From: Candidatus Daviesbacteria bacterium
GTDB lineage: Bacteria > Patescibacteriota > Microgenomatia > Daviesbacterales > UBA10151
Length of the DNA stretch: 64,000 nucleotides
Assembly: GCA_016183305.1 (NCBI GenBank)
Contig: JACPEW010000006.1
Coordinates: 2,317-66,316 of the forward strand
Direction: 5' to 3'
A program made the translations under genes and the position numbers. Shown here in pieces: positions 6,604 to 62,277 of this stretch (position 1 is the first letter of the stretch; the number at the start of each line of letters is the position of its first letter). Below the pieces are notes generated by a model. It searched no databases, was not told where the DNA came from, and saw nothing but the letters and a program-made list of their open reading frames with translations.

Positions 6604-6607
6604 CTTT

Positions 6608-6675
6608 GTCATCCTGAACTTGATTCAGGATCTATACCAACAATCGTATAGATTCCAGATCAAGTCTGGAATGAC
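6608..6675. repeat. R2 composite palindrome (two inverted GTCATCCTGA..TCAGGATC units)
   Basis: GTCATCCTGAACTTGATTCAGGATC TATAC...GTATA GATTCCAGATCAAGTCTGGAATGAC between pheS and pheT. Confidence 0.8.
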
Positions 6676-6687
6676 AGAAAGGAATTT

Positions 6688-8328
6688 ATGAAAGTATCAA
6701 TAAATTGGTTAAAAGAATTAGTTGATTTAAAAATATCCATTGAAGAAGTTATTAGGCTGTTACCTCTTAGAACTATTGGCCTTAAAGAAGTAACCCCAGA
6801 TTATATTGAGCTGGATATGAAAGGTTATAACAGGGCAGACCTTTTATCCTTAAGAGGAGTGGCTTATGAAATAGCAGCTATAACCAATTCAGAAATTAAA
6901 TTTGAAGAAGAAAAACAATTTGTATGGGAAGAAAATAATTTAACCAAAACTAAAGTAACTGTGGAAAATAAATATCTAGCACCACTTTATTGTATTGCAA
7001 GAATAGAAAACCTTAAAGTTGAGGAGTCAAATGAAACATGGGTAAAAAGACTGAACGATTCAGGCATTAGAGCTGTAAATAATATAGCTGATGTTACTAA
7101 TCTAATAATGGTGGAGTTTGGACAACCAATGCATGCTTTTGATGCTGCCCAGGTAGCTGATGAGGCTATAATTGTTAAAGCAGCTAAAAATGGGGAAGAA
7201 TTAACGACTCTAGATGGAAAAGCAAGAAAGCTTACTCCTGAAGATTTGTTAATTACTGATCCTCAAAAAGCTTTAGGATTGGCTGGAGTAATGGGAGGCA
7301 AAAATTCAGAGGTTACAGAGGAAACTTCTGCTATTTTACTAGAAGCTGCTATCTTTGACTCAAAGACTTTAAGGAAAACCTCTACCAAATTAGGACTTGT
7401 ATCTGAAGCCGGCAAAAGGTTTTACCATGGCCTGACCAAACAAAGACTTTTCCAAGCTTTAAACAAAGCTATAAAAATGTATGAGGAAATTGGCGGTAGA
7501 TTAACTGCTTTAACAATTGTAGATAATCTAAACCAGCAGTCTATTACTTTAGACTTAACTCAAAAGAAAACTAACTCTCTTATTGGAATAGAAATTCCAG
7601 CTAAGCAAGTTGAAAAACATTTGGCAGCTTTAAGGTTTAAACTAGCTTCCCACATCGGAAGTGGGAGTGTAGTTTGGGAAGTGACTGTTCCATACTGGAG
7701 ACTGGATATAGAAATTGAGGAAGATTTAATTGAAGAAGTAACCAGGATGTATGGCTATGAAAAGATTCCAGCCAAGGCTTTGAACACAAATATACCAATC
7801 ATATCTCAAAATCTCTTTTTTGACCTGCTGGAGAGGCTTAAACAGGCATTTTCTCAGGCTGGTCTGACAGAAGTCCAAACCTATTCTTATTATTCCTCTC
7901 AAGTGATTAATAATTTAGGATTAAGGATTAATGATTTAATAAAAATAGCTAACCCAATATCATCTGAAACCGAATATTTAAGGGATAATCTCTGGCCAAA
8001 TCTTTTAGAAGTAACTGCTAAAAATACTAGGAATGGGACTGCTGATGCTGCTGTATTTGAAATAGGCAAAGTGTATAAGATACAAGATGGTTTACCACAA
8101 GAAAGCTACCACTTAAGCATTGCCTTAAGCAATGGTACAACCAATCCTCTGCAAGAGCTTAACCAGATAGCCCAAAAATTAAACCTTCAACTGAAGGATC
8201 AATTAACTGGTGAATACTTTCACCCAATAAGACATATTGAGGGAATAGCTGAAGTCCACCCAAGAATTGTTAATAAATTTAAAGTAGAACAAAGAATAGC
8301 CGTTTTAGAGTTGGATCTTTCTAGTTAA
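6688..8328 (+). CDS. pheT: phenylalanyl-tRNA synthetase beta subunit, minimal form
   Basis: MKVSINWLKELV start, B3/4 and B5 regions present. At 546 aa it lacks the OB-fold tRNA-binding insert and the C-terminal anticodon-binding domain of long bacterial PheT. Confidence 0.88.
   Translation: MKVSINWLKELVDLKISIEEVIRLLPLRTIGLKEVTPDYIELDMKGYNRADLLSLRGVAYEIAAITNSEIKFEEEKQFVWEENNLTKTKVTVENKYLAPLYCIARIENLKVEESNETWVKRLNDSGIRAVNNIADVTNLIMVEFGQPMHAFDAAQVADEAIIVKAAKNGEELTTLDGKARKLTPEDLLITDPQKALGLAGVMGGKNSEVTEETSAILLEAAIFDSKTLRKTSTKLGLVSEAGKRFYHGLTKQRLFQALNKAIKMYEEIGGRLTALTIVDNLNQQSITLDLTQKKTNSLIGIEIPAKQVEKHLAALRFKLASHIGSGSVVWEVTVPYWRLDIEIEEDLIEEVTRMYGYEKIPAKALNTNIPIISQNLFFDLLERLKQAFSQAGLTEVQTYSYYSSQVINNLGLRINDLIKIANPISSETEYLRDNLWPNLLEVTAKNTRNGTADAAVFEIGKVYKIQDGLPQESYHLSIALSNGTTNPLQELNQIAQKLNLQLKDQLTGEYFHPIRHIEGIAEVHPRIVNKFKVEQRIAVLELDLSS
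7642..7672 (+). repeat. R1 REP hairpin inside pheT
   Basis: CTAGCTTCCCAC ATCGGAA GTGGGAGTGTAG; translated in-frame as ASHIGSGS. Confidence 0.8.
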
Positions 8329-13128: not shown

Positions 13129-13211
13129 CCAGAGGTACCCAAGTGGCCAACGGGGGCTGACTGTAAATCAGCTGGTTTATACCTTCGAAGGTTCGAATCC
13201 TTCCCTCTGGA
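13129..13211 (+). tRNA. tRNA-Tyr (anticodon GUA), long variable arm, C1:G72
   Basis: Acceptor CCAGAGG/CCTCTGG, D arm CCCA-AGTGGCCAAC-GGGG, anticodon arm GCTGA-CTGTAAA-TCAGC, variable arm TGGTTTATACCTTC, T arm GAAGG-TTCGAAT-CCTTC, A73. Confidence 0.9.
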
Positions 13212-16584: not shown

Positions 16585-18348
16585 TTAGCTCTTCATCCAC
16601 CTAGCCCTAGGGGTTTGGACTCTGCCAAATTTCTGGCCTAAGCGTAAAACTATGCTTAGTAAAATATAATAAGCTTTCCCATGATAATGTTCTGCTGCTT
16701 TACTTAAATGCTCATAAGCTTTTTGCTGACCAATTTTAGAAGTAGAACCTCCATGATAATGGATAAACTGACTAGCAGGCACAAAATAAATTAGTACTCC
16801 AAATTGCTTTAATCTTCTGCAGTATTCTATATCCTCAAAAAAGATAAAGGTTCCTTCATCCAACAGCCCTACTTTGTTAATTATCTTTCTTGGAATCATA
16901 AAACAGGCCATTACCAAACCTTCCACTTTACTAGGTTTTTCCCCTTGAGGAGCATACATAAAATAAGCTCCCTTCTTTAACAGGAAATATTCCTTAAAAG
17001 CCCCAAAGATAGTAGGCAGGTGGAAAACACTATCCTGCTCACTCATGTCCTCAAAAAATAACTTACCTCCTAAAACTGCCTTGCCTTTAAACTCATCTTC
17101 TGTTTTAACTAATTCAGTAAGACTATCCTTTAAAACTTTAATATCTGAATTAAGCATTAAATAATACTCACCTAAAGAATATTTAATAGTTTTGTTATAA
17201 CCTTTGGAAAATCCTTCATTGTCTTGGTTTTGTAAGTATTTAATCTTAGGCAAAAACTCTTTGATGGCTTCTTTACAAGGATCAATTTGACCATTATCTA
17301 AGACAATTACTTCCATATTCTTGGGATCAAACCCAGACCCTTGCTTAAAAATACTCTCCAGTAATTTCTTAGTTAAATCAGCAGTGTTGTAATTAACAAT
17401 CCCAATAGATAACTTCAGGGGATACTCTACGTTCCCACTTGACGAGTGGGAAGCTAGGTTTCCTTGGCCTGTAATGCCTAAATAAAAATCTAAAACTCCT
17501 TTTCTTTGGGCTGGCCTGCCAAAAATAAACAGTTTTAAAGCTTCCCTTAATAAAGCAAACTTAGTCCTATCTCTTCCATACTTCATCCCAAAAATTAATC
17601 TATTCCTGGTATGGTAATAATCAGTAATAGGGGAGCCTATACCAGTTGACTGGGAAACTTTGTGGTAAATAGAAGTTTTTCCATTATAGTAAACTTTAAA
17701 TTCAGCATTTTTTGCTCTTTTATTAAAATCACTATCCTCAAAATAGAGAAAGTATCTCTCATCTAATCCTCCTAATACCTCTTTTTTAATCATCACACAA
17801 GCTCCAGAAAAAATCTCAGTTTCCTCAACAGCATCATATTGACCCTTATCCACCTCATCAATACCCCTGTGAATATTCCCGATATTATCCCAATCAAATT
17901 TTCCTCCAGCAAACCACAATACTTTACCTATCTCTTCTTTTTTATATCTATCCTTATGAAACTCAAACCCAGGAGCAAAATAAATCTTAGGAGAAACTAA
18001 ACCAATTTTAGAATCTGATTCTAAAGTATTAACTAAGTCTGTAACTAAGTTAGTATCTTTTATCAAACAATCATTATTAACCAGCAAAAAATAATCAGCT
18101 CCCCAAATTTGAGCATAGTCTATACCCTTGTTATAACCTCCAGCAAAACCTAAATTTTGTCCAGTTTGTACTATATTTACCTCTGGAAAAGCTTTATGGA
18201 TAGCAGAAACGCTCCCATCAGACGAAGCATTATCCACCACGATTACCTGTTGCCTGTAACCTTTTGCCTGTAACCTTTTTAATGATTCCAAAAACTCTAT
18301 CGTGTCTTTCTTGCCACTATAATTAAGTGTAATTATTGCAATTTTCAT
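16585..18348 (-). CDS. tandem double GT2 glycosyltransferase (two GT-A domains in one ORF)
   Basis: Two copies of the ...IITLNYSG/..SIGIVNYN.., DNASSDGS/DNGQ, and xED motif pattern, joined by a linker that contains an R1 REP. Confidence 0.8.
   Translation of the reverse strand: MKIAIITLNYSGKKDTIEFLESLKRLQAKGYRQQVIVVDNASSDGSVSAIHKAFPEVNIVQTGQNLGFAGGYNKGIDYAQIWGADYFLLVNNDCLIKDTNLVTDLVNTLESDSKIGLVSPKIYFAPGFEFHKDRYKKEEIGKVLWFAGGKFDWDNIGNIHRGIDEVDKGQYDAVEETEIFSGACVMIKKEVLGGLDERYFLYFEDSDFNKRAKNAEFKVYYNGKTSIYHKVSQSTGIGSPITDYYHTRNRLIFGMKYGRDRTKFALLREALKLFIFGRPAQRKGVLDFYLGITGQGNLASHSSSGNVEYPLKLSIGIVNYNTADLTKKLLESIFKQGSGFDPKNMEVIVLDNGQIDPCKEAIKEFLPKIKYLQNQDNEGFSKGYNKTIKYSLGEYYLMLNSDIKVLKDSLTELVKTEDEFKGKAVLGGKLFFEDMSEQDSVFHLPTIFGAFKEYFLLKKGAYFMYAPQGEKPSKVEGLVMACFMIPRKIINKVGLLDEGTFIFFEDIEYCRRLKQFGVLIYFVPASQFIHYHGGSTSKIGQQKAYEHLSKAAEHYHGKAYYILLSIVLRLGQKFGRVQTPRARWMKS
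17427..17457 (-). repeat. R1 REP hairpin (loop variant TTGACGA) in GT2-GT2 linker
   Basis: TTCCCAC TTGACGA GTGGGAA GCTAG; reads ASHSSSGN on the gene strand. Confidence 0.8.
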
Positions 18349-19417: not shown

Positions 19418-20467
19418 TTAAGCCTTAGTTTTTATCCTAAGCTTCCTATAATTTTCTAATAATTTAATTCCTCCTAAGACAAAATCCCTAAACAGGGGAG
19501 GGTACTTTTTATAGTAGTGTTTCTTATAAAAAATCTTCATAGCAGTGACTCCATAAATTGCAGTTTCTAATTTAGTTTCTTTTGGAACAGTAGTTAATGC
19601 TGTAGTCCAAAGCCCGGAAGAAGAACCTTTGTAATGGATTATTTTTACCTCCGGGTAATAATAAATCTTCCAGCTTTTTTCTTTTAAAGAGTAACAAAAT
19701 TCTATATCCTCACCATTCCAAAAATAATCTGTATTCCACCATCTTATTTGTTCTCCAGCAATTTTCCTTACCATCAAAAAAGCCCCTGTTAAGGAGTCAA
19801 TCTCATGGGCTTTATTAATATCTAAGTAAGAAGCTGTATAGCCAGAAAAAAGAGAGGATTTAGGAAAGATTTTAGACAGCCCGCTAAAGTAAGCAAAAGA
19901 ATTCCAGGGAGTAGGGAAACCTCTATGACAGGAGTAATCTAATCTTCCATCAGGCAGCTCAACCCTGCAAGTTAAGGCTCCAATATCAGGATCTGACAGT
20001 AACTTTTCTAAGGATTTTTGAATAGCATGATCAACAATAATAGTATCTGGATTTAAAAACAAAACCACTGGAGCTTTAGCAAATTTTACCCCCACATTAT
20101 TCCCAGCAGAGAAACCTAAGTTCTCCTTGTTTTCAATAAGCTGTACCACCCTATCACTCTTAATTTCTTCTTTGTCATACTGAGCTCCATTTTTGTCATT
20201 CTGGTTTGTCCAAAATCTTCCCTTTCCCCTGTCATTCCCGCCCGCTCCGCGGAGCGGGCGAAGGCGGGAATCTATACCAATAACTCTATATTTTCCCTTC
20301 ACAGCTTCTACAGACCCGTCAGAGGAAGCATTATCCACCACAATTACCTGCCACCTGTCTAACTTATCCTTACTTTGAAAAATTGAGTCTAAACATTTAA
20401 GCAATAAATCCTTAACATTGTAGTTAAGGATAATAATAGAAAGCTCTGGAGTCTTTAAATTTGTCAT
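19418..20467 (-). CDS. GT2 family glycosyltransferase carrying an R2-derived insertion
   Basis: LSIIILNYN, DNASSDGS, ENLGFSAGNN, EDIEFC; ~35-aa low-complexity insert between them. Confidence 0.8.
   Translation of the reverse strand: MTNLKTPELSIIILNYNVKDLLLKCLDSIFQSKDKLDRWQVIVVDNASSDGSVEAVKGKYRVIGIDSRLRPLRGAGGNDRGKGRFWTNQNDKNGAQYDKEEIKSDRVVQLIENKENLGFSAGNNVGVKFAKAPVVLFLNPDTIIVDHAIQKSLEKLLSDPDIGALTCRVELPDGRLDYSCHRGFPTPWNSFAYFSGLSKIFPKSSLFSGYTASYLDINKAHEIDSLTGAFLMVRKIAGEQIRWWNTDYFWNGEDIEFCYSLKEKSWKIYYYPEVKIIHYKGSSSGLWTTALTTVPKETKLETAIYGVTAMKIFYKKHYYKKYPPLFRDFVLGGIKLLENYRKLRIKTKA
20174..20272 (+). repeat. three tandem R2 units inside the GT2 CDS
   Basis: GTCATACTGAGC.., GTCATTCTGG..AAAATC, GTCATTCCCGCCCGCTCCGCGGAGCGGGCGAAGGCGGGAATC; translated as ...SRLRPLRGAGGNDRGKGRFWTNQNDKNGAQYDK... 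Confidence 0.75.
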
Positions 20468-24860: not shown

Positions 24861-25787
24861 TTATGTCATCACAGCTGCTGCTGTTGCTATTTCTAAAATT
24901 TCTTTGGTAATACCAGCCTGTCTGGTCTGATTAAAAGTTAACTTCAAATCATCCAAAAGCTCTAAAGCATTATCTGTAGCATTTTGCATAGCTATCATTC
25001 TAGCAGATTGCTCAGAAGCTTTAGTCTCAAGCAAAGCTTGGTAAATTTTAGTTTCAATATGATGAAGTAAAATAAAATCCAATAAAACATCCGGGTCAGG
25101 TTCAAAAAGGAATTCTTTATTGTCATTCTGAGCGACTGGCTCGCTCCGCGGAGCGAGCGAAGAATCTTTAGACTTGTCCTTATAATCTTGAGATCCTTCA
25201 TCTCCCAGATTCCGGATAACAGACGCTAAATCTACAGGTAGAAGCTGGACTAATTTTGCTTGCTGCCTTAGGGTGGAAACAAATTCTGGATAAACAATTA
25301 ATACTTGTCCTACTTCACCAGCATTAAAAGCTTCTATCACTAATCTGGATAATTGTTTGGCCTGCCTGAAAGTAACTTTTTCAGGATTTTCAAAATCAGC
25401 TTTTAGATTTTTACTAGTCCTGGCCACATATGCCCTGCCTTTTTTACCCAGGGTGTAATAAACAGTATCTGCAGGCAAATTTGAAGAAAAAATTGTCCTG
25501 GTTAAATTAGTATTTAAAGCCCCAACCAAGCCTTTATCAGTTGAGAGTAAAATTACCCCGGAGGTTTTTATGCTTTTGGGAGATAATAAAAGATGAGACT
25601 GTATATTAATTCTAGGTAAAAGCCTTAATAAGGCTTGGCCTAAATTTTGGGTGTATGGCCTGCCGGAAAGAGCCTGGTTTTGTGCCCTTTTCATCTTAGT
25701 AGCAGCCACCATCTGCATAGCCTTAGTTATTTGGCTTGTATTCTTAATAGATTTTATTCTTCTTCTTAATTCTCTAGTACTAGCCAT
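24861..25787 (-). CDS. atpG: F1 ATP synthase gamma subunit with R2-derived insertion
   Basis: MASTRELRRRIKSIKNTSQITKAMQMVAATK N-terminus, ...SARMIAMQNATDNA...ITKEILEI C-terminus. Confidence 0.9.
   Translation of the reverse strand: MASTRELRRRIKSIKNTSQITKAMQMVAATKMKRAQNQALSGRPYTQNLGQALLRLLPRINIQSHLLLSPKSIKTSGVILLSTDKGLVGALNTNLTRTIFSSNLPADTVYYTLGKKGRAYVARTSKNLKADFENPEKVTFRQAKQLSRLVIEAFNAGEVGQVLIVYPEFVSTLRQQAKLVQLLPVDLASVIRNLGDEGSQDYKDKSKDSSLAPRSEPVAQNDNKEFLFEPDPDVLLDFILLHHIETKIYQALLETKASEQSARMIAMQNATDNALELLDDLKLTFNQTRQAGITKEILEIATAAAVMT
25122..25166 (+). repeat. R2 unit inside atpG CDS (45 nt, in-frame)
   Basis: GTCATTCTGAGCGACTG-GCTCGCTCCGCGGAGCGAGC-GAAGAATC; reads KDSSLAPRSEPVAQNDN on the gene strand. 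Confidence 0.8.
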
Positions 25788-29298: not shown

Positions 29299-29404
29299 GA
29301 TTATATTATCCTAGATTAAAGGGTTATTTTACAAGAAGCTTTTAAAATCCGCCGATAGCAGATTGACATCACCTGAACATAGGAAAAATAACTACCTTCC
29401 AACA

Positions 29405-29435
29405 CTACCTTCCCACATCGGATGTGGGAAGGTAG
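29405..29435 (+). repeat. R1 REP hairpin (31-nt near-perfect palindrome)
   Basis: CTACCTTCCCACATC G GATGTGGGAAGGTAG. Confidence 0.85.
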
Positions 29436-29436
29436 T

Positions 29437-30114
29437 TTAATCATCAGCGTCAATTAACAATTTAGAAAGAGCAGGGCTATCAACTTCAGTTTCCTCCACA
29501 AAAGACTGATAAGTTAAATTAGGGTTAGTTTTAGAAAAGTAAGAAGAGATAAGATTTGTATCACAAAATGGATGCGGTTCTCCTGATAAATAATAAGGAT
29601 ATGAGGAATATGGATAAAATCTATGTTCCCACATCGGAAGTGGGAAGCTGTTTCTATGGATATATTTTGATAAATGAAGTAAGTACTCATCTGTCTCAAT
29701 TAGCTTTGCCTTAAATCCACCCTGAAATAAAGAACCTACTCTCTTGTGTCTGGTATTGAAATACCGAGTGTAACTATCTGCCACTTTCCTTAAAAATTCT
29801 GATATACCTCCATCAGCCAATTGTTGAATTAGCAAATGAAAATGATTCGGCATTAAACAGTAACAATATATCCTCACCAGCTCTGTTTGATTATCTATCT
29901 TTTTAAGCTTTATCACACCTCTTCTGAAATCTGAAAGCTTCATTGGAACCGGAGATTTACGGTAATAGTCCAAAGTTTCTAAAAACCTTAGGTGGTCCCA
30001 TCTGTCCATAAAGGTCTTCCTTTTCTCAACACCGCGGTTATAAATATGGTAAAAGCTGCCACTAATAAATGGGGGATTAACCACGCTTCTATTGTCTAAT
30101 CCGTATTCCCACAC
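29437..30114 (-). CDS. REP-associated tyrosine transposase (RAYT; IS200/IS605 TnpA-like Y1 HUH enzyme)
   Basis: YHIYNRG, HUH motif LMPNHFHLLI, Tyr motif SKYIHRN; 225 aa. Confidence 0.75.
   Translation of the reverse strand: MWEYGLDNRSVVNPPFISGSFYHIYNRGVEKRKTFMDRWDHLRFLETLDYYRKSPVPMKLSDFRRGVIKLKKIDNQTELVRIYCYCLMPNHFHLLIQQLADGGISEFLRKVADSYTRYFNTRHKRVGSLFQGGFKAKLIETDEYLLHLSKYIHRNSFPLPMWEHRFYPYSSYPYYLSGEPHPFCDTNLISSYFSKTNPNLTYQSFVEETEVDSPALSKLLIDADD
29621..29650 (+). repeat. R1 REP hairpin inside the RAYT CDS
   Basis: TTCCCAC ATCGGAA GTGGGAA GCTG; reads SFPLPMWE immediately after YIHRN. Confidence 0.8.
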
Positions 30115-30131
30115 GTCAAGTGGGAAGGTAG
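30106..30131 (+). repeat. R1 REP hairpin (loop variant ACGTCAA)
   Basis: TTCCCAC ACGTCAA GTGGGAA GGTAG overlapping the RAYT start. Confidence 0.8.
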
Positions 30132-30410: not shown

Positions 30411-31982
30411 TTAATCCAACTTTTCCCTTTGGGTTCTGAGGAATGAAAACCATTGTTCAAAGAAGGCAAAGATTCCTTTAAATGGAGTCTCAATTATAAA
30501 GTCAAAAACAAACAAAAGAATATTTATTTGGGAGATAGCTAAAGTTAACCTTCTTCCTACTTGAATAAAAGGCATAAAGAAAAAGTCAAAAGCAAGTGAG
30601 CCAAAATTATCTTTTTTCTTTTTGATAATATACATATTAGCTGTCCTGTTAATCCTGTAACTGACAAAAGATACTATTGCCAGGAAAAAGACAAATACTC
30701 CTTGGGAGAAAGGATTTACATGAAGCTTAGTCAAGATAAAAACTATTGATCCCAGACTAACAGCAAATGTAAACAGCCAAAGTACTACAAACATTCCCCA
30801 AAGCATTGGATCAGTTTTTTTAGGTTTTTTCCTGACTACCAAAGGCTCACTTAACTGGGGATCCCCGTCATATAAAATAGTATTTATTTTCTTTAGGATT
30901 TTTAAGGAATTTTCCCTGGTTGGAGTTTTTATTAAAAATCCTACCCCAATCATCAAAGTTGGAGGAGTAAAGATATTAATTAAGATAGATGACCAAATTG
31001 TCCTGCCATAAAAAAATCTTTCAAAAGCTCCTTCTATAAATAAAGCGAATAAGGCTTTTGTTACAAATATAAAAATCACACTTCTGACAATTGCTCTTCT
31101 GACTTTGCTTGAGATATTTTTATAGCGGGCGCTACAATCTGCAATCACTTCTGAATTTAATAAATCTTCATCAGCCACCAGTGAAGAAGTCTTACCACGG
31201 TATTTTCTTAAAACATCATCCAAAATCAGAAAAGGAATGCTTTGCTTTTTAATGTAGGTATAAATCCTGTCTTTTGCTGGATACTTAAATTGGGTTTCTA
31301 TTTGTTTAATAGCCTCAGGAAAATGGTTAGCAACCCGTTCTAAATTATGTTCATTTAAACCTTCAAAATATTGTTTAAATAAGTGGTAGCGCAAAAAAGC
31401 TAAATCATCATTAGCATATGCTCTTCTTACAGCAATAAAAACTTGGACATCCCGGATTTGCTCATCATCATCAGAAATAGCAACTCTGTCTCTGAAAATC
31501 CTAAACATAAAATTGCTCATAATATCTTTAGGATCATTAGGCTTTAAAATATGTTCTATCTCAGAAGATAAAAGATGTAAAACCCACTCATTAACCAAAC
31601 CTTTATTAATCCTGTGTTTAACATTTACTTTTTCTTCTAACTTTAAATACAAGTCTGTTTGTTCTGCTACTTTGGTAATTTGAGACTCAGGAATTGTGGA
31701 ATCAGGAAAATAACGGGCCCAAATCAACTCCCTTATTAAAGGAGCAGCGATTGATTGACCATCCCCACCCAGCATCAGTCTTCTTTTTAAAATCCTTTCA
31801 ATTGTGGAACGCAGGATTACCTCATCTTCCCTATAATCCATTGCTGTCCTAAACTTTTCATACCAGGTAGCCAGTTCTGCCACCAAAGGATTAACAGAAA
31901 TAGTTTTATCATGGTTGGGAATAGCTGCCCTGTCATATGCTGTTACCAAGGCTGTGGATAATTTATTTAATGTTTTAGCCAT
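30411..31982 (-). CDS. hypothetical polytopic membrane protein (523 aa)
   Basis: Soluble helical N-terminal half, 5-6 TM C-terminal half. Start moved to ATG 31982 because the 22 codons upstream are R2-repeat sequence. Confidence 0.5.
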   Translation of the reverse strand: MAKTLNKLSTALVTAYDRAAIPNHDKTISVNPLVAELATWYEKFRTAMDYREDEVILRSTIERILKRRLMLGGDGQSIAAPLIRELIWARYFPDSTIPESQITKVAEQTDLYLKLEEKVNVKHRINKGLVNEWVLHLLSSEIEHILKPNDPKDIMSNFMFRIFRDRVAISDDDEQIRDVQVFIAVRRAYANDDLAFLRYHLFKQYFEGLNEHNLERVANHFPEAIKQIETQFKYPAKDRIYTYIKKQSIPFLILDDVLRKYRGKTSSLVADEDLLNSEVIADCSARYKNISSKVRRAIVRSVIFIFVTKALFALFIEGAFERFFYGRTIWSSILINIFTPPTLMIGVGFLIKTPTRENSLKILKKINTILYDGDPQLSEPLVVRKKPKKTDPMLWGMFVVLWLFTFAVSLGSIVFILTKLHVNPFSQGVFVFFLAIVSFVSYRINRTANMYIIKKKKDNFGSLAFDFFFMPFIQVGRRLTLAISQINILLFVFDFIIETPFKGIFAFFEQWFSFLRTQREKLD

Positions 31983-32016
31983 TTGATGTACTATGATAAT
32001 ATTAACACAGTCCATT

Positions 32017-32041
32017 GTCATCCCAGACTTGATCTGGAATC
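32017..32041 (+). repeat. R2 unit in tyrS divergent intergenic region
   Basis: GTCATCCCAGACTTGATCTGGAATC. Confidence 0.7.
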
Positions 32042-32060
32042 TGTGCAAAGTAATTTATTT

Positions 32061-33374: not shown

Positions 33375-33668
33375 CTACCCCTTCTCATCAGTTTTTAATT
33401 CAGATGATTCGTTTTTAGGTTTTCCCCTATATCCAACCCTGCCACCAAAAACGGGGTAAAATCCCCTATTAAAATCCCAAACTTCAATTATATCCGCAAC
33501 ATACCCTGCTTCTCTCATAAGCCTCATCTCAGTACTCAACCGATGCAACCCTTCAGCCAATCTCTGAAGAGTAACCGGAAGATATACTACAGCTACCAAC
33601 CACTCCCTAAAAGTAGGCGGTTGTATTGGCAACCTTTCTGAAGTTGGATGTTCTGTTCTTCGTTCCAT
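33375..33668 (-). CDS. hypothetical protein
   Basis: 97-aa ORF, locally higher GC; no family recognised. Confidence 0.35.
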   Translation of the reverse strand: MERRTEHPTSERLPIQPPTFREWLVAVVYLPVTLQRLAEGLHRLSTEMRLMREAGYVADIIEVWDFNRGFYPVFGGRVGYRGKPKNESSELKTDEKG

Positions 33669-33704
33669 GTGTTGTATTTTAGCACAAATTGGTATAATTG
33701 CCTT

Positions 33705-35798
33705 ATGAATTTAAAAACTCCTTTATCCAGTTTAACTGGAATTGGCCTAGGGCTTAATTTTAAGCTTAAAAGGTTGAACTTAATTACCATTGAGGATTTA
33801 GTCTATTATTTTCCTTTCAGGTATGAAGATTTTTCTAATAATACCTCTGCTTTAGAAGCTAAAATAGGGGAGTCTGTTACCCTGCAGGGTGAAATTTGGT
33901 CTATTCAAAACATTTATACCAGGTCCAGGAAAATTATTACTAAAGCTATTTTTAATGATGGCACCTCACCTATAGAGCTAACCTGGTTTAACTCATCCTG
34001 GCTAACAAAACAAATTAAAACAGGGGACAGACTGCAAATCTCAGGAAAGATCAGTAAATATAAAAACAAGCTTTCCATCATAGCCCCGCGATGGGAAAGG
34101 CTTGACAGCGAAAAACAGCTTCCCACATCGGAAGTGGGAACGCAGATTCATACAGGCAGATTGGTACCTGTTTATCCTGAAACAGAAGGTTTATCTTCTA
34201 AATGGCTAAGAACTAAAATTTCCCAAACCTTACCTCATATTTTAAATCAAATAGAAGATTCCTTACCTGATGATATTAGAAAAGCAATGTTGCCTTTAAC
34301 AGAGGCTATACAGCAAGTCCATTTTCCCAAAAACTGGCAAGAGGCAGAAAAAGCCAGGGAAAGGTTAGGCTTTGATGAGCTGTTTTTTATCTCCTTAGCT
34401 ACTCAAAAAGCCAGGTTAAATTGGCAACAGAAACCTTTGGTTAAACCCTTAAAAATAAATTCTACAAAATTAAACCAGTTTATAAACAAGCTGCCCTTTA
34501 AATTAACTGCTGCCCAAGAAAAAGTCTTACAAGATGTAATAGCTGATTTAAAGAAAAACCAGCCAATGAACAGGTTAATCCAAGGTGAAGTAGGATCTGG
34601 AAAAACAGTAGTGGCTGCAATTATTGCTTACCTAACTTATCTTAATGGCTTAAAAACACTATTCATGGCTCCGACTGAAATCCTAGCTTTCCAACATTTT
34701 GAGACTCTTAAGAAATTCCTTGAACCATTTGGAATTACAATGGGGATATATACAGGGAGCAAAAAGGATTTAGTGACTAGTGACAAGAGTCAAGAATCAA
34801 GAAAGAAACCCCCTCACTTGACTCTAGCGGCTAGCGGCCACCCCGATACTATAATTGGCACTCATGCCTTACTTTCACCCAAATTAAACCTGGAAGATAC
34901 CGGGCTAATTATAGTAGATGAGCAACAACGCTTTGGAGTGGGACAAAGAACTGTACTTAGATCCAAAGCCAGAGTCCCACACTTTTTAACCATGACTGCT
35001 ACCCCTATCCCTAGGACTATTGCCTTGACCATTTATGGAGATTTAGATATGTCTGTAATCGATGAGTTGCCAAGAGGACGCCGGATGGTCAAAACCTATG
35101 TGGTGCCAGAAAAGAAAAGAGCTGATTCATATAAATTTATTGCCAAAAAAGTAAAAGAGGGCGGTCAAGCCTATATCATCACTCCTTTAATAGAACCCTC
35201 AGAAACTTTAGCCACTGTTAAAGCAGTTAAGGTAGAGTTTGAGAACTTAAAAAAGGTTTTCCCTGATTTAAAACTAGGCTTGCTTCATGGCAGGATGAAA
35301 GGAGCAGAAAAAGCTCAAGCAATCAAAAGCTTCCGTTTGGGACAAACAGATATTTTAGTTTCTACTTCTGTAGTTGAAGTTGGAATGGATAATCCCAATG
35401 CCACAATTATAGTTATTGAAGGAGCAGAAAGGTTTGGCTTGGCCCAGCTTCATCAACTAAGAGGCAGGGTAGGAAGAGGCTATAAAGAGTCTTTCTGTTT
35501 GCTTTATACCTCTAATTCTTCAATTGATGAGGGCAGAAGACTAAAGTATCTAGAAACTACTTTTGATGGTTTAAGATTGGCAGAGCTGGATTTAAAAATC
35601 AGAGGTTCAGGACAAATCTTTGGTACTGCCCAGTCAGGCAGGTTTGAGCTTAAAATAGCTTCTTTTTCTAACCTAAGCTTACTAGAAAAAACCAAAGATG
35701 CTGCTTTTAAACTACTCTCTTCAGATCCAGGTCTTGACAAATACCCTGTAATCAAGGCAAAATTACAGGATATCGCATCAGAAGTGATGCCTGATTAA
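33705..35798 (+). CDS. recG: ATP-dependent DNA helicase RecG
   Basis: Wedge/OB N-terminus, GEVGSGKT, DEQQRFGV, TATPIPRT, HGRM, QLRGRVGRG; start set at ATG 33705. Confidence 0.92.
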   Translation: MNLKTPLSSLTGIGLGLNFKLKRLNLITIEDLVYYFPFRYEDFSNNTSALEAKIGESVTLQGEIWSIQNIYTRSRKIITKAIFNDGTSPIELTWFNSSWLTKQIKTGDRLQISGKISKYKNKLSIIAPRWERLDSEKQLPTSEVGTQIHTGRLVPVYPETEGLSSKWLRTKISQTLPHILNQIEDSLPDDIRKAMLPLTEAIQQVHFPKNWQEAEKARERLGFDELFFISLATQKARLNWQQKPLVKPLKINSTKLNQFINKLPFKLTAAQEKVLQDVIADLKKNQPMNRLIQGEVGSGKTVVAAIIAYLTYLNGLKTLFMAPTEILAFQHFETLKKFLEPFGITMGIYTGSKKDLVTSDKSQESRKKPPHLTLAASGHPDTIIGTHALLSPKLNLEDTGLIIVDEQQRFGVGQRTVLRSKARVPHFLTMTATPIPRTIALTIYGDLDMSVIDELPRGRRMVKTYVVPEKKRADSYKFIAKKVKEGGQAYIITPLIEPSETLATVKAVKVEFENLKKVFPDLKLGLLHGRMKGAEKAQAIKSFRLGQTDILVSTSVVEVGMDNPNATIIVIEGAERFGLAQLHQLRGRVGRGYKESFCLLYTSNSSIDEGRRLKYLETTFDGLRLAELDLKIRGSGQIFGTAQSGRFELKIASFSNLSLLEKTKDAAFKLLSSDPGLDKYPVIKAKLQDIASEVMPD
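34116..34145 (+). repeat. R1 REP hairpin inside recG
   Basis: CAGC TTCCCAC ATCGGAA GTGGGAA CGCAG; reads QLPTSEVGTQ. Confidence 0.8.
34773..34841 (+). repeat. R3 heptamer arrays inside recG
   Basis: GTGACTA GTGACAA GAGTCAA GAATCAA GAAAGAA ... CTTGACT CTAGCGG CTAGCGG CCAC; reads VTSDKSQESRKKPPHLTLAASGH. Confidence 0.7.
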
Positions 35799-56822: not shown

Positions 56823-57461
56823 ATGACAGCCAAGCTTTTATTATCTTTATCATATAATACAAGACTCATTGCTATCCAGGAGGAATTAAAAAAACAAAAT
56901 TTACCAATATCCCATCCTGACCTTTTATATTTTGATCAAGAAACAAAGCTGGGAATCTCTGAGGCAAGAAAAATTAAAGATCATTTTTCTTTAAAACCTT
57001 ATTCTGCCAAAGGCAGGGGAGTAGTTTTAGAAGATGCTGCCAAGTTAACAATTGAGGCCCAAAATGCCCTGCTTAAAACTTTAGAAGAATTGCCAAAAGA
57101 AGCTACTCTGGTTTTGGGAGCCAGCTCAGAAGCAAGCTTATTGCCAACTATTTTATCCCGCTGCCACATAATTCGTATACAAAACCCTACGTCTCATCAT
57201 ATTCCTACCCCGGAGGTAGGATATATAGAGAATATAAAAAACTTGTTAAATTCTGAAGTTGCAGATAGGCTTGAATACATAGAAAAGCTAAAAAACAAAG
57301 AAGAGTTTTTACAAGCTTTAATAGTATATTTCCATGATAATCTTTTAAAATATCCTGAGTTTGCAAACCAGCTTTTACAAGCAGAAGAATGGTCTAAACA
57401 AAATGTAAACATCAGGACAATTTTAGAATACTTGATGCTTGTGATGCCCCGGATAAAATGA
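56823..57461 (+). CDS. holB: DNA polymerase III delta-prime-like subunit, short
   Basis: AQNALLKTLEE, LPTILSRCHII. Confidence 0.6.
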   Translation: MTAKLLLSLSYNTRLIAIQEELKKQNLPISHPDLLYFDQETKLGISEARKIKDHFSLKPYSAKGRGVVLEDAAKLTIEAQNALLKTLEELPKEATLVLGASSEASLLPTILSRCHIIRIQNPTSHHIPTPEVGYIENIKNLLNSEVADRLEYIEKLKNKEEFLQALIVYFHDNLLKYPEFANQLLQAEEWSKQNVNIRTILEYLMLVMPRIK

Positions 57462-59631: not shown

Positions 59632-62277
59632 ATGGTTAAGAAAGCAGTCCATTTTCTAGGAATAGGGGGGTCTGGTACTTCTTCTGCTGCTGCAATTGCA
59701 GAGGCTCAAGGATTTGAGGTTGGTGGTTGTGATCTGCAACCCAATAATGAGTTCACCACCATTTTCCAACCAAACCAACTCCAAGTAGGCCATAGTCCCC
59801 AGCATTTAGCTTCCCACCTTAAAGGTGGGAACGTAGATATTTTAGCTGTTACTCCTGCTATTTTTTCTTTAGACCCAGATAACCAAAAAAAAAAAAAAGA
59901 AAAGAAAAAAGGGATTGAAGTTTTAACCTGGCAGCAGTTTGTTGGTAAATATTTAGCTAAGGACAAATCTGTTATTGCTGTTTGTGGCACTCATGGCAAA
60001 ACTACCACAACTGCTATGATTGCCCAAATATTAGAAGATGCAGGCTTAGACCCAACTGTAGAGCTGGGTGGTATTGTTCCCAGATGGAAAGCTAACTATA
60101 GAGTAGGAAAAGGAAAGTACTTTGTAGTAGAAGCTGATGAATTTAATGATAATTTTTTATCCCATTATCCTCAAATTACAGTAGTAACTAATATTGAAAT
60201 GGACCACCCAGAATATTTTAAGGATTTTGAGGCAGTGAAAAGTAGTTTTAAAAAGTTTTTACTTCAAACTAAAACAACAATTGTAACTAATTTAACAGAC
60301 TCTACTGTTGCTGAAATTCTTAAAGGTGTAATGAAGGAATCCTCAGTTTCTGCTCTGGATTTTACCAAAAGCCGGATGGATTTTAACTTAAAAATACCAG
60401 GTCAACATAATGTTTTAAATGCCAAAGCAGCAATGCAGGTAGGACTCCTTTTAGGAACAGGCCCAGAAATTATTAGAAAAAGTCTAAATAACTATACTGG
60501 AGCAGGCAGAAGGTTTGAGTATATTGGAGAGTTTAATCAAGCAAAAATTTATTCTGATTTTGCTCATCATCCTACAGAAATAAAAACAACTATGGAAGCT
60601 GCTAGGGAAAAATTCCCTAAGGAGAGAATATTTTTAGTTTACCAGCCACATATGTTCTCAAGAATTAAAGCCCTTTTTGAAGACTTTGTTAGAGTTTTCC
60701 AAAGCCTACCAGTTGACCAAATCTTTATTACAGATATTTATCCTTCCAGGGAAAAAGATACTGGTTTAGTAAATAGCAAACAGCTTGTTGATGCTACTGC
60801 TAAAGATTCTGTAAGTTATATTGGTAGTATAGATGAAACTTTAGAAAAATTAAAACCACAAATTAAACCAGGAAATGTTGTCTTTTTCATGGGAGCAGGC
60901 AGTATTGATCAATTAGCCAGAAAGTTAGTGAAACAAAAAGTTTTGGTATTTGGCTTAGGTCTAAACCAAGGCGGAGTAGGGGTAGCTAAATTTTTTGCTC
61001 AAAATGGAGCAGAAGTTAGAATAACTGATTTAAAAACTGAAAAAGACTTGCAAGCTTCTTTAGATAAGTTAAAAGAATTTAAAAACATTTCCTATACTTT
61101 AGGGGGGCATACATTTGAAGATATTGATTGGGCTGACTTAATTATTAAAAACCCGGCTGTTAAACCAGAAAATAAATATATTGGGTATGTATTGGAAAAA
61201 GATAAAGAAGTAGAAACAGATTTTTCCATTTTCCTCCAATATGCAGATCAAAAAAAGATTATCGCTATTACTGGCACCAAAGGTAAAACCACAACTGCTT
61301 CACTGATTTATGAAGTATTAAAAGCTGCAAATGAACAGGCAGTGCTGGCTGGAAATATTGGCAGAAGTATTTTAGATACCTTACCATATTTAGATAAAAA
61401 CCCTTGGATTATAGTAGAAATATCTTCTTTTCAACTACAAGCTTTGGCGGAAAAAAATTTTGCTCCAAAGATTGCTGTTATTACTAATATCTATCCGGAT
61501 CACTTAAATTGGCATTTCTCAATGGAAGAATATATTGAGGCTAAAAAAATAATTGCCGAATACCAAACAAAAGAAGATTTTCTTTTTATTAGAGGGGGGA
61601 ATGTAATGGTAGATAAACCGGATTTTTTAAAAGGTTTGAAAGCTAAAATTATCCGCTTTTCCAAAAATGACTTACCGGCAGGTTTACAACCTAATTTGCT
61701 AGGAGAACATAATCTAGAAAATATAGCAGCAGCGTATTCAATAGGTAAAGTTCTTAGCGTCAACTCAAACCTCCTCCTCAAATCTCTTACTCAGTTTAAA
61801 GGTGTGCCGTTTAGGATAGAACTTATTAAGGAGTGGTATGGAGTAAAAATTTACAATGATACTACAGCTACTTCCCCTGAAGCAGGGATCCAAGCCATAA
61901 AAACGCTTTCCAAACTACATTCCCACATCGGAAGTGGGAAGCTAGTTCTTATTTGTGGTGGCATGAATAAAAAAATGGATTATAAAAAATATGCAGAAGA
62001 AGTTATTAAAAATGTTCAACAAGTATTTTTTCTGGAAGGAGATGCAACTGAGGAAATCATCAAGAGAATTCAGAATTTAGAGTTCAGAGTTCAGAATGGT
62101 GGAATTTATAATAATATTGAAAAATTGCTACAGGATGTTAAAAAAGAAGTAAAACCTGGAGATACTATTTTGTTTTCACCAGCAGCCACTTCTTTTAATT
62201 TATTCCAAAATGAGTTTGACAGGGGAAGACAATTTAATAAAGCAGTTGAAAAAGTTTTTGGGGAAGATGCTTCTTAG
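59632..62277 (+). CDS. murC-murD: MurC-MurD fusion: UDP-MurNAc L-alanine ligase joined to UDP-MurNAc-L-Ala D-glutamate ligase
   Basis: MurC half: FLGIGGSGTS, CGTHGKTTTTAM, EADEFN, GAGRRFE, DFAHHPTE. MurD half from about aa 437: VFGLGLNQGGVG, ITGTKGKTTT, EISSFQL, NIYPDHLNWH, FKGVPFRIE, NDTTATSPEA. Confidence 0.88.
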   Translation: MVKKAVHFLGIGGSGTSSAAAIAEAQGFEVGGCDLQPNNEFTTIFQPNQLQVGHSPQHLASHLKGGNVDILAVTPAIFSLDPDNQKKKKEKKKGIEVLTWQQFVGKYLAKDKSVIAVCGTHGKTTTTAMIAQILEDAGLDPTVELGGIVPRWKANYRVGKGKYFVVEADEFNDNFLSHYPQITVVTNIEMDHPEYFKDFEAVKSSFKKFLLQTKTTIVTNLTDSTVAEILKGVMKESSVSALDFTKSRMDFNLKIPGQHNVLNAKAAMQVGLLLGTGPEIIRKSLNNYTGAGRRFEYIGEFNQAKIYSDFAHHPTEIKTTMEAAREKFPKERIFLVYQPHMFSRIKALFEDFVRVFQSLPVDQIFITDIYPSREKDTGLVNSKQLVDATAKDSVSYIGSIDETLEKLKPQIKPGNVVFFMGAGSIDQLARKLVKQKVLVFGLGLNQGGVGVAKFFAQNGAEVRITDLKTEKDLQASLDKLKEFKNISYTLGGHTFEDIDWADLIIKNPAVKPENKYIGYVLEKDKEVETDFSIFLQYADQKKIIAITGTKGKTTTASLIYEVLKAANEQAVLAGNIGRSILDTLPYLDKNPWIIVEISSFQLQALAEKNFAPKIAVITNIYPDHLNWHFSMEEYIEAKKIIAEYQTKEDFLFIRGGNVMVDKPDFLKGLKAKIIRFSKNDLPAGLQPNLLGEHNLENIAAAYSIGKVLSVNSNLLLKSLTQFKGVPFRIELIKEWYGVKIYNDTTATSPEAGIQAIKTLSKLHSHIGSGKLVLICGGMNKKMDYKKYAEEVIKNVQQVFFLEGDATEEIIKRIQNLEFRVQNGGIYNNIEKLLQDVKKEVKPGDTILFSPAATSFNLFQNEFDRGRQFNKAVEKVFGEDAS
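59885..59898 (+). repeat. A14 homopolymer inside the murC half
   Basis: 14 consecutive A, followed by GAAAAGAAAAAAGGG; reads QKKKKEKKKG. Confidence 0.95.
61915..61945 (+). repeat. R1 REP hairpin inside the murD half
   Basis: TTCCCAC ATCGGAA GTGGGAA GCTAG; reads HSHIGSGKL. Confidence 0.85.
62069..62096 (+). repeat. R3 tandem heptamers inside the murD half
   Basis: TTCAGAA TTTAGAG TTCAGAG TTCAGAA; reads IQNLEFRVQNG. Confidence 0.75.

Follow-up and report, generated by a model that had tools for sequence, protein, structure and literature searches.

Repetitive extragenic palindromes (REPs) and REP-associated tyrosine transposases (RAYTs) are usually discussed as extragenic systems, and whether they are parasites or benefit the host is debated. 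Intragenic REPs tagged with GTAG or CGTC are also known, and the sections that treat them (Di Nocera, De Gregorio and Rocco, 2013; PMC3733652) report examples in Opitutus terrae, Rickettsia conorii and others, including copies in repair genes and tRNA synthetases, and propose that tolerated inserts sit in linkers or loops. The classic in-frame palindromic inserts are the Rickettsia palindromic elements (RPEs; Ogata et al., 2000, via PMC3733652), and in REPIN-RAYT systems the REPs form inverted doublets (Bertels and Rainey, 2011, PMC3116915; PMC8049555). Here we describe a hairpin family in a 64,000 nt stretch of Candidatus Daviesbacteria DNA (contig JACPEW010000006.1, positions 2,317-66,316, assembly GCA_016183305.1), termed the window. 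The original prediction on this DNA set the presence of hairpins within pheT, recG and murC-murD against a definition of REPs as extragenic; this is a matter of naming, since intragenic REPs with these tags and RPEs had been described earlier (PMC3733652). The reading we consider probable is that the hairpins are REP-like miniature elements, tied to a conserved RAYT cassette and translated as loop extensions after selection on reading frame and position.

The exact 20-mer TTCCCACATCGGAAGTGGGA occurs four times in the window (in the genes for PheT, RecG and a Y1 transposase and in the MurD half of a MurC-MurD fusion), where 100 dinucleotide-preserving shuffles lead us to expect no occurrence. 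A one-mismatch version is present at 29410, and the stem pair TCCCAC...GTGGGA encloses different 7 nt loops at 17433 (a GT2 gene), 30107 (the transposase gene start) and 59812 (the MurC half). The resulting eight stem-pair copies in 64 kb compare with about one expected. We use the term type A for any hairpin with the stem pair TCCCAC/GTGGGA, whatever its loop. Alignment of the copies reveals a full element of about 33-35 nt, yTAs-N-TTCCCAC-N7-GTGGGAA-N-sTAr, which is composed of an inner stem (TTCCCAC/GTGGGAA, 7-9 bp), a 7 nt loop and an outer stem formed by tetranucleotide tags. CTAC or TTAG at the 5′ foot pairs with GTAG or CTAA, which are frequent at the 3′ foot, and yTAG or yTAC usually precedes type-A copies. 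Folding energies range from -13 to -25 kcal/mol per copy, with z-scores of -3.8 to -6.6. An Rfam scan of the window returned only three tRNAs (genes at 181-263, 1392-1465 and 13129-13211), and the hairpins match no Rfam family. All window copies are isolated singlets lying kilobases apart, not the inverted doublets of REPINs, and six of the eight are inside open reading frames (ORFs).

The gene identities are supported by Pfam matches to PheT (B3_4 and B5), RecG (wedge and helicase), Mur ligase, GT2 glycosyltransferase and Y1 transposase domains. In the full-length pheT gene (6688..8328, + strand, 546 aa), the hairpin AACTAGCTTCCCAC-ATCGGAA-GTGGGAGTGTAGTT at 7640..7674 (+) lies in the B5 domain and is read LASHIGSGSVV. 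The recG gene (33648..35798, +) carries its copy at 34114..34146 (+), in the linker that follows the wedge domain, where it is read QLPTSEVGTQ. The MurC-MurD fusion ORF (59632..62277, +, 881 aa) contains two: one in the C-terminal domain of the MurD half, in the loop before strand LICGG (61914..61946, +, read KLHSHIGSGKLV), and one with the same stems and loop CTTAAAG in the MurC half (59805..59837, +, read HLASHLKGGNVD). The same stems occur in the GT2 glycosyltransferase gene (16585-18348) at 17425..17460 (-), with gene-strand loop TCGTCAA. The original prediction had placed hairpins at 7642-7672 in PheT (KLASHIGSGSVVW), 61915-61945 in the MurD half (KLHSHIGSGKLVL) and 34116-34145 in RecG (QLPTSEVGTQ, in another frame), and these coordinates and peptides are exact. 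Its central statement, that REP-type hairpins lie in frame at loops within intact housekeeping genes, also holds, with three frames in use (SH..G, PT..VG and FP..WE). Among the reading contexts it proposed, of which it counted at least three, the opposite strand in GT2 is not a separate one: the stems are palindromic, and the gene strand there reads NLASHSSSGNVE in the same frame as PheT.

The family is physically associated with a RAYT-like Y1 (HUH) transposase gene at 29437..30114 (-), whose product carries the motifs HFH and YIHRN and matches Pfam Y1_Tnp with 37 bits against a cutoff of 23. A sequence search of this protein against solved structures gave no match, nor did a plasmid search with the cassette. 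Three family members accompany the gene. One overlaps its predicted start codon (30106..30126, -; gene strand TTCCCAC-TTGACGT-GTGGGAA, which includes the predicted GTG of V-W-E-Y), a second is inside the coding region (29620..29652, -; read NSFPLPMWEHR, with the core FPLPMWE), and the third is an intergenic REP directly 3′ of the gene, just past the stop codon (29404..29436, no strand assigned; ACTACCTTCCCACATCGGATGTGGGAAGGTAGT, -24.8 kcal/mol), which is the most perfect palindrome of the family. A RAYT gene flanked in this manner, by REPs at 29404-29436 and 30106-30126, is the REPtron arrangement of REP/RAYT systems (PMC3733652, PMC3116915).

For comparison we used DNA of relatives in the form of loci of about 8 kb (given L numbers), obtained from a scan for the 20-mer with one genome per species and from protein searches. 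The layout with three REPs recurs in five genomes (the window, L003, L029, L031 and L119). The surrounding gene order is common to the first four, and L119, a 937-bp contig, shares the cassette only. In L119 an ATG start lies inside the 5′ hairpin (100-126) where the window has GTG, so that the first residues are (V/M)-W-E, and an mRNA hairpin at this position could control transposase translation. The peptide FPLVEWE of orthologue P0361 had been taken for a decayed REP; this assignment was withdrawn, as the DNA shows intact stems with another loop. Beside the cassette is a 545-aa ORF (30411-32048), conserved at this place in L003, L029 and L031, which has no Pfam or NCBIfam match.

The scan located the exact 20-mer at 31 loci in about 12 metagenome-assembled genomes (MAGs), with 1 to about 10 occurrences per MAG. 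Its hosts are housekeeping proteins unrelated to one another: MurC, MurD, PheT, HolB-like, ATP synthase gamma (AtpG), M1 peptidase, MurT, CysRS, PGK, mevalonate diphosphate decarboxylase (MVD), GT2, a methyltransferase and RecG, or at least 13 protein families altogether. Adjacent hairpin pairs were seen only with other families (a family-D hairpin beside type A in L022 and a type-B dimer in L067). The MAGs bear the label Daviesbacteria, Levyibacteriota or 'uncultured Gammaproteobacteria'. The group with the third label (binchicken assemblies; L001-L005, L007-L009, L011-L014, L016-L017, L019, L021, L023-L028 and L031) shows synteny with the window at 68-83% DNA identity, and the title is therefore probably wrong; proteins of these MAGs carry Daviesbacteria names in other sources. 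PheT of the window is itself identical to a protein with a Candidatus Daviesbacteria annotation. One further match (L030 4730-4749, on a 58% GC Spirochaetaceae contig) is isolated and in a doubtful ORF, and was treated as chance or unrelated.

The same stems are found at matching codon positions in PheT, MurC, MurD, RecG, GT2 and the RAYT gene of independent MAGs, where flanking DNA is about 70% identical. Assembly chimeras, which the original prediction had named as a possible source, are excluded by independent assemblies that share hairpins at orthologous positions with such diverged flanks. Alignment of orthologues, as it had proposed, reveals empty sites and net insertions in MurD, RecG and PheT. 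Across 120 PheT orthologues, and about 58 orthologous loci compared as DNA, the site is a B5-domain loop that is hypervariable. Empty sites read, for example, GF-SMQNQ-EVTVPYW or GF-TLEKEGQD-WEVTVPYW, and the filled site reads GF-KLASHIGSGNVV-WEVTVPYW, a net gain of 4-8 residues. In aligned PheT orthologues from distant members of the Candidate Phyla Radiation (CPR) neither the hairpin nor its residues were found, which also disposes of the concern that unrelated lineages might carry the same residues without the palindrome. In the AlphaFold (AF2) model of PheT (mean pLDDT, the predicted local distance difference test, 86.6), residues 318-333 form an extended beta-hairpin with strands E318-324 and E327-333 and a G-S turn; local pLDDT of the insert is about 76.

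Comparable results were obtained at the other sites. Most MurD orthologues are empty (KTF-PG-CILICGG), whereas filled ones read KTA-SHIGSGN-VVLICGG, and the window protein gains nine residues that fall between a helix and the strand LICGG on alignment to the solved structure 3lk7. The shortest RecG orthologues read WEKLES-QKT-IHTG, and the window again has nine more residues, located in the post-wedge linker by alignment to the solved structure 1gm5. At this RecG site other lineages carry type A in the SH..G frame. The transposase segment from YIHRN to YPYSSY comprises 11 residues in the window versus 13-15 in relatives; the hairpin replaces a variable segment and adds no length. The original estimate of 8-10 added residues per hairpin is consequently right for MurD and RecG, too high for PheT and inapplicable to the transposase. 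The structural mapping it had called for, by the PheT model and the two solved structures, was carried out, and all insertion sites are loops. Loops of the hairpins themselves differ between copies: the orthologous GT2 copy in L025 has ATCGGAA, and the MurC site has ATCGGAA in five orthologues and TTGACAA in one. Although MurC and MurD form one ORF in the window, they are separate genes in L023 (1982-5470), with murI, the glutamate racemase gene, between them on the opposite strand, and L027 has a similar gap of about 830 nt between murC and murD; the window has lost or moved murI, and both ligases are fused in frame.

Several properties of the family had no place in the original prediction, namely frame bias, stem conservation at the DNA level, loop variation between orthologous copies and the presence of other families at the same loops. 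The stems are conserved beyond what they encode. All eight PheT orthologues with intact stems, whose loci came from protein search and not from a DNA pattern, use TCC CAC ... AGT/AGC GGG for S-H...S-G, codons that make up 13%, 30%, 16% and 18% of the genome's codons for these amino acids. Pairwise third-position identity is 1.00 for the A-S-H stem codons and 0.71 for the S-G-N stem codons, compared with 0.53 for the loop codons and 0.40-0.49 for 12 codons on either flank. Loops at this site include ATCGGAA, ATGGAAA, ATATCAA, ACGACGA, CCGTCAA, TCGTCAA and the inverse TTGACGA, and two loop groups (ATCGGAA, and TTGACRW with its complement) recur over many sites. Type-A stems offer no covariation evidence because they never vary. 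A second hairpin family at the PheT site has two pairs changed on both sides, which is no more than suggestive of covariation, as 41 of 500 shuffles gave the same outcome and five sequences were compared.

Such stems raise the alternative that the hairpins are cis-acting sites under sequence-specific purifying selection, as DNA or mRNA, within coding regions. The binder might be a domesticated RAYT or a host factor. Its sites might serve to process single-stranded DNA (ssDNA) during replication, to structure the chromosome, or to act in mRNA, through processing or through pausing where domains meet. This explanation overlaps partly with a RAYT-linked mobile family, as it assumes the same origin and another reason for persistence. 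It accounts for the invariance of synonymous stem positions where the flanks of the PheT site are about 57-70% identical and point changes accumulate in the loops, which gene conversion from other copies would be expected to homogenise as well. Consistent with it are also the single-copy cassette, with one architecture in five genomes (four of them syntenic), and the transposase start codon within a REP, which suggests regulation via the hairpin. However, occupancy is patchy, in that the site is vacant or taken by another hairpin family in most orthologues of MurD and in many of PheT and RecG, and this disfavours a need for any individual site. Stems have decayed in some lineages, as in the PheT copy of L117, the hairpins follow no rule of position with respect to where genes start or end, and no Rfam family is matched. 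We regard cis-site selection as possible but unlikely. A more specific version, in which a maintained set of cis sites with a cellular role is read by a domesticated, vertically inherited RAYT whose gene has the hairpin in its own start and coding region, we hold to be somewhat more doubtful. If true, the role could be to mark or process ssDNA in replication, or a programmed turnover of core-protein surface loops, and the in-frame peptide would be the price of placing sites where intergenic space is nearly absent. The invariance of the stems may reflect just the need for recognition by the transposase in a population that turns over, or it may reflect a selected function in cis. Simple copying-over from a master, or long conversion tracts, are disfavoured because loops drift beside invariant stems.

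Evidence for turnover is provided by the distribution of the hairpins. On a neighbour-joining tree of PheT, in which the radiation is poorly resolved, the 20 type-A carriers imply 17 changes in occupancy, where shuffling gives a mean of 18.8, and any argument for recurrent gain is limited by this weak resolution. In other lineages the same protein loops are occupied by other families, CGCAAGGC-CTG-GCCTTGCG with variants and CCACCC-CGA-GGGTGG with variants. Hairpins are also nested within type-A hairpins, in L113 (21 nt, in the loop), L015 (21 nt), L022 (42 nt), L029 and L117 (27 nt). Taken together, the occupancy, loop, other-family and nesting data indicate that hairpins have repeatedly been gained, lost and replaced at a small number of tolerant loops, and that some force holds the stem sequence intact.

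Among the nested elements, a CCTGCC...GGCAGG family was inserted at the identical type-A position (after AAG and before TGGGAA) in the different contexts of L022 (240-281) and L029 (3081-3101), which hints at target specificity for the hairpin itself. A second small family, (A/T)GCCCCGATTNAATCGGGGTyA, is read (A/T)PI(K/E)SG and occurs at L022 3675-3695, L113 1475-1495 and L012 7117 and 7585.

An origin in place, by template switching at quasi-palindromes or by patch-like gene conversion between short homologies, would dispense with a transposase. The hairpins of PheT and the RAYT gene do replace native sequence instead of adding a clean block, the hairpin's right arm looks similar to native PheT sequence next to its site (TGGGAAGT, which encodes W-E-V), and there are loop inversions and chimeric loops such as TLASHEEALQGW. 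Palindromes that form de novo, however, cannot yield an identical 20-mer in genes of 13 or more unrelated kinds. The family also has a physical link to a Y1 transposase gene, which its members flank, and there are clean 21 nt insertions whose ends are defined. We therefore judge formation in place to be very improbable.

The coding copies are strongly biased in reading frame. Over all fetched DNA we counted 60 unique stem-pair copies, 49 of which are within ORFs of at least 100 aa. This proportion approximates the coding fraction of the compact Daviesbacteria genome (0.87), and the hairpins are thus not excluded from genes. Because the stems are palindromic, just three frames need to be considered. 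SH..G is used by 42 copies, FP..WE by five as counted (five transposase-gene copies plus one other, one of them uncertain) and PT..VG by two. The PT..VG frame meets the TAG stop of the flanking tags, and in RecG it stays open because the tags read CAG, not TAG, on both sides. Clean hairpin insertions identified by pairwise comparison measure 21, 21, 21, 27, 33 and 42 nt in long ORFs, all multiples of three, in contrast to 30, 38, 41, 44 and 59 nt outside ORFs. These frame, stop and length patterns fit selection on the translated products.

A stronger claim for the protein would be that the SHIGSG-type peptide is a motif selected for its function and the palindrome is incidental. The preponderance of SH..G (42 of 49 copies in ORFs) and the modelling of the PheT insert as an ordered beta-hairpin agree with this proposal. 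It is largely refuted already by the reading of the same DNA in two other frames (RecG and the RAYT gene) and by intergenic copies, and it also conflicts with the spread over at least 13 unrelated protein families, the fixation of rare codons, the free variation of loop residues and the many orthologues that lack the motif, so that we consider it very improbable. Short GC-rich mobile inserts bypassed in translation are known from yeast mitochondria, but an assembly or binning artefact, or elements cut from the message or bypassed by the ribosome, can be dismissed here for practical purposes, as nothing in the data supports either, the same positions are filled in independent assemblies of different projects, and the inserts are always multiples of three, stop-free in the used frame and accompanied by frame-specific TAG-to-CAG changes, none of which skipping would need.

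We return to the reading of a RAYT-linked, translated hairpin family and to how it might operate. The elements would belong to a REPtron, in which one vertically inherited gene for a RAYT-type Y1 (HUH) transposase is combined with three REPs. The RAYT would recognise the stems on single-stranded DNA and mobilise or renew copies; such targeting fits the preference of other hairpins for insertion within existing hairpin loops. In a compact genome the elements would not be kept out of genes. Coding copies would persist only where the length gained or lost overall is divisible by three, where the frame used is free of stops (the TAG tags close one of three frames unless mutated), and where the roughly 9-11 encoded residues fall in a tolerant surface loop. 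Survivors would be read as short loop or beta-hairpin extensions, mostly (L)(A/R)SH-xx-SG(N/K)(V/L).

Several observations weigh against this interpretation. The best NCBIfam match of the transposase, 'REP-associated tyrosine transposase' (REP_Tyr_transpos), scores 42 bits against a curated cutoff of 80. The tag tetranucleotide is at the 3′ foot (5′ CTAC ... GTAG 3′) rather than forming the canonical unpaired 5′ GTAG, copies are singlets and not REPIN doublets, and the copy-number evidence points to low values (8 in 64 kb for the stem pair; for the exact 20-mer, from 1 to about 10 in each MAG). Two clean 21 nt insertions of the (A/T)GCCCCGATTNAATCGGGGTyA family appear to be accompanied by target duplications of 3-4 nt (TAG; TCA or TCAA). 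To our knowledge, Y1 transposases make no target duplications; IS200/IS605-type mobility involves insertion 3′ of a fixed tetra- or pentanucleotide, also without them. The scattered occupancy of the PheT site is partly uncertain, given the weakly resolved tree. If one master were simply re-inserted, orthologous sites would not be predicted to combine invariant stems with drifting loops, and this combination leaves room for a selected function. Finally, mobility within the population and translation through the insert are deduced indirectly, from comparison of sequences.

Other palindromes were noted in and near these genes. A diverged relative, TCCTACC-CCGGA-GGTAGGA, is present at 57203..57221 (+) in a HolB-like gene (56823-57461), where it is read IPTPEVG; relative to the family stem TCCCAC/GTGGGA it has a paired C>T and G>A change. 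It was considered as an orthologue of the HolB copies in L005, L027 and L028 and rejected, being at residue 127 here and residue 25 there. Two GC-rich hairpins of other types are inside ORFs: CGCCCGC-TCCGCGGA-GCGGGCG at 20239-20260, read RPLRGAGG (ORF 19418-20467), and GCTCGCT-CCGCGG-AGCGAGC at 25139-25158, read SLAPRSEP (ORF 24861-25787, apparently ATP synthase gamma), which resembles the 27 nt insert of L117 (CGCTCCG-CAGG-CGGAGCG). The region between pheS and pheT (6604-6680) contains a long palindrome of 75 nt (-32.5 kcal/mol, z -5.2). An 88%-identical copy exists at an unrelated locus (L013 5374-5443) and a 27 nt fragment at 32016-32042 of the window, and the palindrome looks like a separate repeat similar to a miniature inverted-repeat transposable element. 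Other palindromes are found just upstream of pheT in L036, L043 and L111.

A repeat population located mostly within essential genes of a very compact genome offers a natural data set to separate DNA-level from protein-level constraint on a mobile hairpin. It also maps insertion-tolerant loops in core enzymes (PheT, MurC, MurD, RecG, CysRS, PGK and ATP synthase gamma). For annotators and phylogeneticists who work on CPR genomes it is a warning that short hypervariable stretches of conserved proteins can be repeat-derived.

How does the family compare with those already described? It shares with REPs the short dispersed palindrome and departs from them in not being extragenic. REPs typically number from tens to thousands in a genome; the DNA compared here comprised the 64-kb window and the 8-kb loci. 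In common with the REPs treated in the intragenic-REP sections of PMC3733652, it consists of 20-40 nt palindromes wholly within ORFs, is accompanied by a RAYT gene flanked by REPs (a REPtron) and has a TAG tag that can be a stop. In contrast to those REPs, the Daviesbacteria copies are singlets almost without exception and about 80% of them fall within ORFs, and GTAG is at the 3′ foot, paired with a 5′ CTAC. The same sections contain no description of orthologous sites across species, of stems invariant at synonymous positions, of a strong frame bias, of several hairpin families at one protein loop, or of a REP inside the RAYT gene itself.

With RPEs the family has in common in-frame palindromes that occupy surface-exposed positions in many unrelated genes of small genomes and leave them unbroken. 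RPE-1 is about 100-150 bp long, a length that the Daviesbacteria element, at 21-35 nt, does not approach, and we know of no dedicated transposase for RPEs. The Daviesbacteria element differs further in having a RAYT-like gene flanked by repeats and in its unrelated sequences, with the caveat that the RPE consensus itself did not enter the comparison. As in REPIN-RAYT systems, a single-copy, vertically inherited RAYT has cognate flanking REPs, the repeat population is long-persisting and the hairpin is the recognised unit. REPINs, however, are inverted REP doublets and almost entirely extragenic, whereas the Daviesbacteria units are in-gene singlets of low copy number.

Two more distant parallels can be drawn. 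Cyanobacterial small dispersed repeats (SDRs) of 21-27 nt, attributed to Elhai and colleagues (2008), reportedly include some hairpins, empty and filled orthologous sites and nested insertions; we take them as a lead only and not as a test, and they belong to a different lineage and have different sequences. Coding palindromes of Nematomorpha mitochondria are inverted repeats in coding sequence with both arms translated (PMC6649704). They differ in being organellar and much longer (up to 284 bp). We are aware of no transposase associated with such mitochondrial palindromes.

No paper turned up in a literature search that combined Daviesbacteria with REP, and the CPR is a new lineage for intragenic REPs. 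Since intragenic REPs and Rickettsia RPEs are already known, this is not a new kind of phenomenon. What distinguishes the Daviesbacteria family from the known systems is that it is mostly intragenic, consists of singlets, has the opposite tag polarity, shares hot-spot loops with multiple hairpin families, and places REPs within the RAYT gene and over its start.

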